Source: Escherichia phage Pipis. From it: DNA of 40,625 nucleotides. Position 1 is the stretch's first letter, and every line of letters begins with the position of its first letter. The position numbers and the translations under genes were made by a program. Below the pieces are notes generated by a model. That model searched no databases and was not told the origin of the DNA. It was given only the letters and a program-made list of their open reading frames with translations. The stretch lies in sequence record PV714130; one strand, 5' to 3'. Positions 2,235-2,326 of the stretch are shown here, piece by piece.

Positions 2235-2257
2235 ACTTAACTATCACTATAGGACTC
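2235..2257 (+). promoter_or_regulatory. phage RNAP promoter upstream of gene 1
   Basis: TTAACTATCACTATAGGACTC matches the window consensus; predicted +1 G at 2252. Confidence 0.5.
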
Positions 2258-2326
2258 AAGGTCTAAGACTCCAAGTGAAAGACCAAAGAGACTTTAAGTG
2301 AAAGACTAATAACAAGGACTTTAAGT

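Follow-up and report, generated by a model that had tools for sequence, protein, structure and literature searches.

The window analysed here was the whole 40,625-nt sequence record PV714130, which is the complete genome of Escherichia phage Pipis, a K1F-like T7-group coliphage of the genus Kayfunavirus. Its first 6 kb showed 97.7% identity to Escherichia phage MirsaeidiM_Esher2 and 94.7% identity to K1F. The assembly was found to be rotated, with K1F nucleotide 1 at position 40310 and the terminal repeat present in a single copy, and a perfect 15-nt tandem repeat (ACCTACAGTCTAACT, 3.7 copies) was located at 40524-40578, just past the terminal-repeat region. The single-subunit RNA polymerase encoded by gene 1 was 62.6% identical to T7 gp1 over the full length and 99.9% identical to the polymerase of Escherichia phage PhiNW-B1. 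The early region upstream of it (1-2326) contained short open reading frames only, plus an ocr homologue at 1015-1236. Immediately before gene 1 lies the gp0.38 homologue, and its TGA stop is 5 nt 5' of position -17 of a phage promoter referred to here as phi1 (Table 1). Further downstream, a gp2 homologue was found at 7870-8022 and a gp3.5 lysozyme homologue at 9687-10139. No homologue of T7 gene 0.7 (kinase/host shut-off) was found in Pipis; CR8, which also has a promoter before gene 1, does have gene 0.7. There were zero matches to Rfam families across the whole Pipis genome.

Table 1. Coordinates of the features discussed in the text (Pipis numbering unless the locus L020 is named)
Feature	Position (nt)	Strand	Basis or description
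Sigma-70-type early promoter	421-450	+	TTGACA, 18-nt spacer, TAATAT; 10/12 consensus positions
gp0.38 homologue, early gene, 86 aa	1969-2229	+	Open reading frame; K1F counterpart annotated 0.38
Phage RNA polymerase promoter phi1 (-17..+6), 23 bp	2235-2257	+	Promoter family, weight matrix and annotation in relatives
phi1 core 18-mer, TTAACTATCACTATAGGA	2237-2254	+	Exact member of the promoter family of the genome
Predicted transcription start, +1 G	2252	+	Analogy with T7-group promoters; aligned with ten other sites
Leader, 75 nt	2252-2326	+	43% A, 63% A+T, 64% purine
Degenerate direct repeats, 21-nt pair	2266-2286 and 2289-2309	+	86% identity
AAGTGAAAGAC repeat, within the 21-nt pair	2273-2283 and 2296-2306	+	String search
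GACTTTAAGT repeat	2290-2299 and 2317-2326	+	String search
Ribosome-binding segment, AAGGACTTTAAGTATG	2314-2329	+	Shine-Dalgarno AAGGA 2314-2318, 8-nt spacer, ATG 2327
Gene 1, single-subunit RNA polymerase, 893 aa	2327-5008	+	Open reading frame; ATG at 2327
Next phage promoter and T7 R1.1-type RNase III hairpin	5313-5380, +1 at 5330	+	Homologue of phi1.1A/R1.1
Gene 1 promoter of L020	9910-9928
Gene 1 of L020	10001-12664

The phi1 promoter is intergenic, between the gene 0.38 stop (2229) and the gene 1 ATG (2327), and has the orientation of gene 1. The string TTAACTATCACTATAGGACTC was found only once in Pipis, at 2237-2257. When the genome was searched with the core 18-mer allowing up to three mismatches, 11 matches were obtained, all on the + strand, compared to 0.01 expected from shuffled sequences. 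With a weight matrix made from nine other Pipis promoters, phi1 being left out, phi1 scored 31.1 bits compared to 34-39 bits for the training sites; the next non-training sites scored 26.3 and 17.8 bits, and the top minus-strand site with the same matrix 5.1 bits. An additional probable promoter variant, CTAAACTATCACCTTAGGGA, was located at 10376-10400 (+1 at 10395, 26.3 bits), outside the three-mismatch search, and a site at 34601-34618 with 14 bits only is probably no promoter. T7-group promoters have their +1 at the G that follows TATA first. The transcript predicted from phi1 would start with GGA, as at the early and middle Pipis promoters; the capsid gene promoter at 21256 starts with GGGAGA. 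A near-consensus phage promoter directly before gene 1 had been proposed from the letters of the window, and both the 11-site family and the matrix score bear this out. Family match, strand and intergenic placement, an encoded cognate polymerase and the covariation of promoter and polymerase described below were all found for phi1, and indicate that phi1 is a genuine cognate promoter of the phage, 75 nt 5' of gene 1. Because the literature search gave no transcript data for Pipis or K1F, we infer both initiation at position 2252 and the feedback discussed below.

The first gene 1 transcripts, made by the host enzyme, probably come from the sigma-70-type promoter predicted from its consensus match at the left end, and in EcoDS1 host RNA polymerase promoters are annotated in the equivalent region. 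No sigma-70 promoter overlapping the phage promoter, such as T7 promoter C would be, was found near 2200-2330. In addition, no terminator-like sites were found on the + strand from 1 to 7500, so none lies between phi1 and gene 1.

A cognate promoter was present at the gene 1 slot in all 24 Kayfunavirus sequences that were read. The promoters of K1F and EcoDS1 were identical to phi1, with a leader that differed by 1 nt in K1F and was identical or differed by 1 nt in EcoDS1. Among IMG/VR loci, all 20 K1F-like loci and a CR8-like locus had the cognate promoter at about -75 to -105; in approximately eight K1F-like loci the promoter was not returned by de novo motif finding and the sequence was then read directly. 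The same slot, between gene 0.38 and gene 1, was occupied in CR44b, Dev2, SFP20 and EcpYZU01 as well. A total of 223 phage records matched positions 2200-2420, with at least 80% of the segment covered in 221 of them, which is about equal to the number of phage records (220) with a polymerase at least 80% identical. A promoter before gene 1 is annotated in the records of EcoDS1 (NC_011042, as 'phi', 2244-2266), CR44b (NC_023576, 1814-1836) and CR8 of the genus Caroctavirus (NC_023548, 3356-3378). These annotated promoters agree with phi1 in position and orientation; CR8 differs from Pipis in promoter specificity and leader, and its layout is the same. A 2026 Kayfunavirus genome paper reported the same promoter consensus, CTWAACTATCACTATAGG, and one copy of it at the 3' end of SPD_007, whose number directly precedes that of the polymerase gene SPD_008 (PMC13298934). 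These findings show that a promoter before gene 1 is the norm for Kayfunavirus and is already known and annotated. The sequence-only reading had implied that the arrangement was unusual; once relatives were compared, the layout proved to be standard in the group (24/24 sequences, 221/223 records).

Outside this group the distribution was uneven. The Ghunavirus Pf1 ERZ-2017 had a cognate promoter about 115 nt 5' of gene 1, and a predicted phi1 promoter is listed for phiIBB-PF7A (PMC3080317). AP10 and ICP3 were without a cognate promoter within 400 nt upstream of gene 1. In ICP3 (L088, 1833-1859), the sequence TTTAACTATAGGACAGCTAACATG directly before gene 1 matched only -7..+3 of the ICP3 promoter CCACACTATAGGA, and possibly represents a partial promoter, or a decayed one, in the phi1 slot. 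No cognate promoter was found within 400 nt upstream of gene 1 in any of 54 informative T7-, T3-, Berlin- and K11/KP32-like loci, which are the 60 non-K1F loci minus six where de novo motif finding returned no promoter. In the annotated T7 record, E. coli promoter C (3113) is the only promoter directly before gene 1, and phiOL lies far upstream at 405. The statement of the sequence-only reading that T7 has no phage promoter directly 5' of gene 1 was therefore correct, according to both the T7 record and the 54 loci.

The promoter before gene 1 was found to change together with the polymerase. In the locus L020, where the polymerase is 88% identical, a T3-like promoter (TTAAACCCTCACTATAGGA) was present at every site, the gene 1 site included, with positions -9/-10 changed from AT to CC throughout. 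In the L020 polymerase, the T7-N748 position is occupied by D and the T7-R756 position by R, compared to N at both in the Pipis enzyme. In CR8, the promoter was AAGGAAGGTACACTATAGG, again with the gene 1 site included, and the specificity loop of the polymerase was also different. At the gene 1 site, the one read for this comparison, SFP20 (L092) and EcpYZU01 (L091) also had T3-like promoters. It was also observed that the T3-like AACCCTCACT... replaces AACTATCACT in some Kayfunavirus sublineages. To judge from these sequences, promoter specificity has been switched naturally within the genus Kayfunavirus.

If phi1 were without function, either as a chance match or as a decayed relic, this would be compatible with the missing promoter in T7, T3, Berlin-like and K11-like phages, and with the non-consensus bases at -2 or -3 in some sublineages. 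However, the exact match to the 18-mer compared to an expectation of 0.01, and the retention of the site in every Kayfunavirus examined, speak against it. Moreover, where polymerase specificity changed, in L020 and CR8, the site changed with it, which is not the behaviour of a relic, and this explanation is extremely improbable. The gene 1 promoter of L020 and CR8 tracks the specificity of the polymerase and its position is kept; it therefore appears to be under selection as a promoter. This covariation is the strongest argument that phi1 is functional and not a relic.

Sublineages differed at position -2 of the gene 1 promoter, a position that has been tied to promoter strength in the literature. 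Dev2 (L090) and L014 carry an A there in the gene 1 promoter (CACTAAAGGA, L014:2401-2423), compared to T in the other promoters of these genomes, and SFP20 carries a G. Given these changes, the gene 1 promoter may be deliberately weak or variably used, and the Dev2/L014 site may be an attenuated autoregulatory promoter. The base changes at -2 hint that the loop is kept moderate.

The leader that follows phi1 contains direct repeats. Both repeats of the sequence-only reading were present, and only the starts of their second copies had to be corrected, to 2296 in place of 2297 and to 2317 in place of 2318. The first repeat lies within a degenerate 21-nt pair, and three to four degenerate copies of 17-18 nt were also found in the leader. 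For the other repeat, it is the second copy that separates the Shine-Dalgarno sequence from the gene 1 ATG. Repetition in the leader was above that of dinucleotide-preserving shuffles at p of about 0.001: the best self-match was 12 compared to a mean of 6.4 (reached by 2/2000 shuffles), and the 5-mer multiplicity was 20 compared to 6.5 (reached by 0/2000). Tandem Repeats Finder did not report the leader, the repeat being too degenerate.

RGAC recurs every 9-15 nt over 2252-2316. The leader contains the only RGAC chain of at least five sites in Pipis, and it shares with positions 2-49 the only two AGAC chains of at least four sites; block shuffles gave none of either kind. The AGAC sites at the left end (2-50) are approximately 13-16 nt apart, with the degenerate 3' half of a promoter, GGCTATAGAC (11-20), before them. 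This stretch includes GACTTAAGGTCTAAGAC, which is almost identical to 2253-2269, and is found immediately to the right of the terminal repeat, a place that in T7 holds an AGAC-containing short-repeat array (285-337) and phiOL. The AGAC chain, with its spacing of about 14 nt, was considered as a deeply conserved motif and rejected: chains of at least four sites were confined to the K1F core group and the left end, and neither the 93% subgroup nor CR8 nor the T7-like IMG/VR loci had any, so that the chain was treated as a lineage-specific repeat.

The leader repeats might be specific regulatory sites that tune polymerase translation, either by binding a protein or through a ACUUUAAGU hairpin that masks the stretch from the Shine-Dalgarno sequence to the AUG. 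The repetition exceeds the shuffle expectation, and, ACTTTAAGT being nearly palindromic, the two GACTTTAAGT copies pair weakly in the predicted leader fold, as do the two near-palindromic ACUUUAAGU copies. The leaders of CR8 and L014 were moderately structured in prediction (z about -2.2), and a repeated GAC...AAG style runs across Kayfunavirus and CR8 leaders. However, the Pipis leader folds no better than shuffled sequences (minimum free energy of -13.5 kcal/mol, z = +0.78 for the whole leader; -9 kcal/mol, z = -0.99 for the 5' hairpin) and has no significant structure. In the middle of the leader (2260-2313), 50% of the columns were variable among the 24 Kayfunavirus sequences. In the Dev2/L014 subgroup, alignment of this middle part reached just 30-31 of 54 positions, and no exact repeat pair was present; the looser GAC...AAG style persists there and in the CR8 and EcpYZU01 leaders. 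A conserved hairpin between the ACUUUAAGU copies was rejected: in L012 and L019 a T-to-C substitution disrupts the proposed pairs and is not compensated for, and L014 has an altered first copy. Specific regulatory sites of this kind are accordingly improbable; the repeats are statistically real and might have a function. The repeats are probably labile local duplications of a GAC...AAG unit and not specific conserved sites, and what they contribute is probably an open, purine-rich leader.

An RNase III site equivalent to T7 R1 was also considered for the leader and rejected, the hairpin being weak, not significant and not conserved in L014 or Dev2. In T7, the slot directly 5' of gene 1 holds the minor host promoter C and the R1 RNase III hairpin, and no phage promoter. 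In contrast, Pipis has RNase III-type hairpins elsewhere and none before gene 1. Canonical hairpins of this type were found at 561-619, 885-935, 1613-1667 and 5330-5380 (z between -3.9 and -5.4; z = -3.87 for 5330-5380). These four hairpins (stem, internal loop, stem) separate early genes and follow the 5315 promoter, and those at 561-619 and 885-935 have the motif CTGACTGATAGTCACTAAC in common.

The ribosome-binding segment was the most constant part of the region. None of its 16 columns was variable among the 24 Kayfunavirus sequences, compared to 35% of the columns in the promoter, 50% in the leader middle and 77% of the third codon positions in gene 1; EcpYZU01 had a one-base variant. The 13-mer GACTTTAAGTATG (2317-2329) occurs in one copy per locus wherever it is present, at the start of gene 1 in K1F-like loci and at the start of gene 1.1 in T7 and seven T7-like loci. 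The T7 copy (L005, 5997-6009) is located just 3' of phi1.1B, and the 15-mer AGGACTTTAAGTATG ends both the Pipis gene 1 leader and the T7 phi1.1B leader. The common GACTTTAAGTATG suggests that a cassette of promoter, leader and ribosome-binding site has been reused before different genes.

The likeness to T7 phi1.1B raises another explanation, namely that phi1 and its A-rich leader are mainly or additionally a replication origin, with the transcript priming synthesis or opening the DNA as at T7 phi1.1A/phi1.1B and the A+T-rich stretch in front of gene 1.1. Every T7 origin has a T7 polymerase promoter; the primary origin consists of phi1.1A and phi1.1B, and phiOR and phi6.5 are possible secondary origins (PMC8373140). 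Like phi1, phi1.1B is of class II type, starts with GGA and has an A/T-rich leader made of ACTTTAAG/CTTAAG words that ends in AGGACTTTAAGTATG. Unlike phi1, it lies 3' of gene 1, serves gene 1.1 and has a different promoter specificity and a leader with 71% compared to 63% A+T, and origin function has been shown for T7 only (PMC8373140).

Besides the shared 15-mer and the single GACTTTAAGTATG per locus, an origin would be in keeping with the region 3' of gene 1, where Pipis has the phi1.1A/R1.1 homologue only and no second promoter like phi1.1B. Among the leaders of Pipis promoters, that of phi1 has the highest A content (43%) and a near-highest A+T content (63%), and the phiOL and phi1.1B leaders are likewise the most A-rich of T7. 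The sole other Pipis AGAC chain is at the left end, and T7 has its AGAC array in the corresponding region, upstream of phiOL. On the other hand, 63% A+T is below the 71-75% of T7 phi1.1B and phiOL and is equalled by the leader of the 17042 promoter, the displaced + strand of the leader has a single GTC (primase core), and the match to T7 outside the ribosome-binding 15-mer is weak. Cumulative GC and AT skew was rejected as an origin locator, since the curves rise monotonically and the T7 minimum is away from its known origin, making GC skew uninformative even for T7. A main or additional origin role, which would be compatible with a role in feedback, is considered unlikely. Slightly less likely again is the more specific proposal that phi1 with its leader corresponds, in the K1F group, to the T7 phi1.1B/A+T-rich module, with the primary origin moved upstream of gene 1. 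If true, it would mean that the promoter/leader/ribosome-binding cassette has been placed before different genes in different T7-group lineages.

We consider it likely that phi1 is a conserved K1F-like cognate promoter that gives positive feedback on the polymerase gene through an unstructured leader with labile repeats. With a cognate promoter directly 5' and no terminator-like site between, transcription of gene 1 by its own product is therefore the natural reading. That the polymerase could transcribe its own gene had been proposed at the outset, and the comparative evidence supports it. In the proposed sequence of events, host RNA polymerase would start at the left-end sigma-70 promoter or promoters and transcribe the small early genes and, beyond them, gene 1. 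The earliest molecules of the phage polymerase would then begin transcription at G2252 and supply further gene 1 mRNA, a positive feedback that would make the locus a natural 'autogene'. Each of these transcripts would have an A-rich, essentially unstructured leader and then the invariant AAGGA-N8-ATG. The loop would keep polymerase mRNA coming once the gp2 homologue shuts off host transcription, and by analogy with T7 it would be limited by the gp3.5 lysozyme homologue. Against giving the feedback much weight, T7, T3, Berlin-like and K11-like phages do without the promoter (0/54 informative loci), and the contribution of phi1 to fitness may be modest for that reason.

The proposed circuit has two known parallels. 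The synthetic T7 autogene is the T7 polymerase gene under a T7 promoter. As proposed for Pipis, the polymerase in this construct transcribes its own gene, with positive feedback as the result (PMC6395690). It differs in being engineered and in having an external trigger; in Pipis the trigger would be host transcription from the early promoters, within the lytic programme, and that programme includes a homologue of a lysozyme-type inhibitor, unlike the autogene. The Pseudomonas phage LUZ100 also has a phage-specific promoter, phi1, directly upstream of the polymerase gene; it was mapped by ONT-cappable-seq, and positive feedback after an initial host-driven expression was proposed by the authors (PMC10134795). 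The LUZ100 start was thus mapped experimentally, whereas the Pipis start is predicted. LUZ100 is only distantly related and shows temperate features, and repression of the MarR type is thought to act on its promoter (PMC10134795); nothing comparable was seen in Pipis.

These comparisons indicate that T7 is no typical member of its group in this respect: in several genera the polymerase gene would be part of a self-amplifying loop, unlike in T7-, T3- and K11-type phages. The switch to a T3-like promoter together with the matching N-to-D change in the polymerase appears to be a clean natural case of coevolution between a polymerase and its promoter. K1F polymerase/promoter pairs serve as orthogonal parts in synthetic biology. 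The phi1 promoter, its leader and the ribosome-binding site would form a compact and conserved expression cassette, the practical relevance of which is modest.
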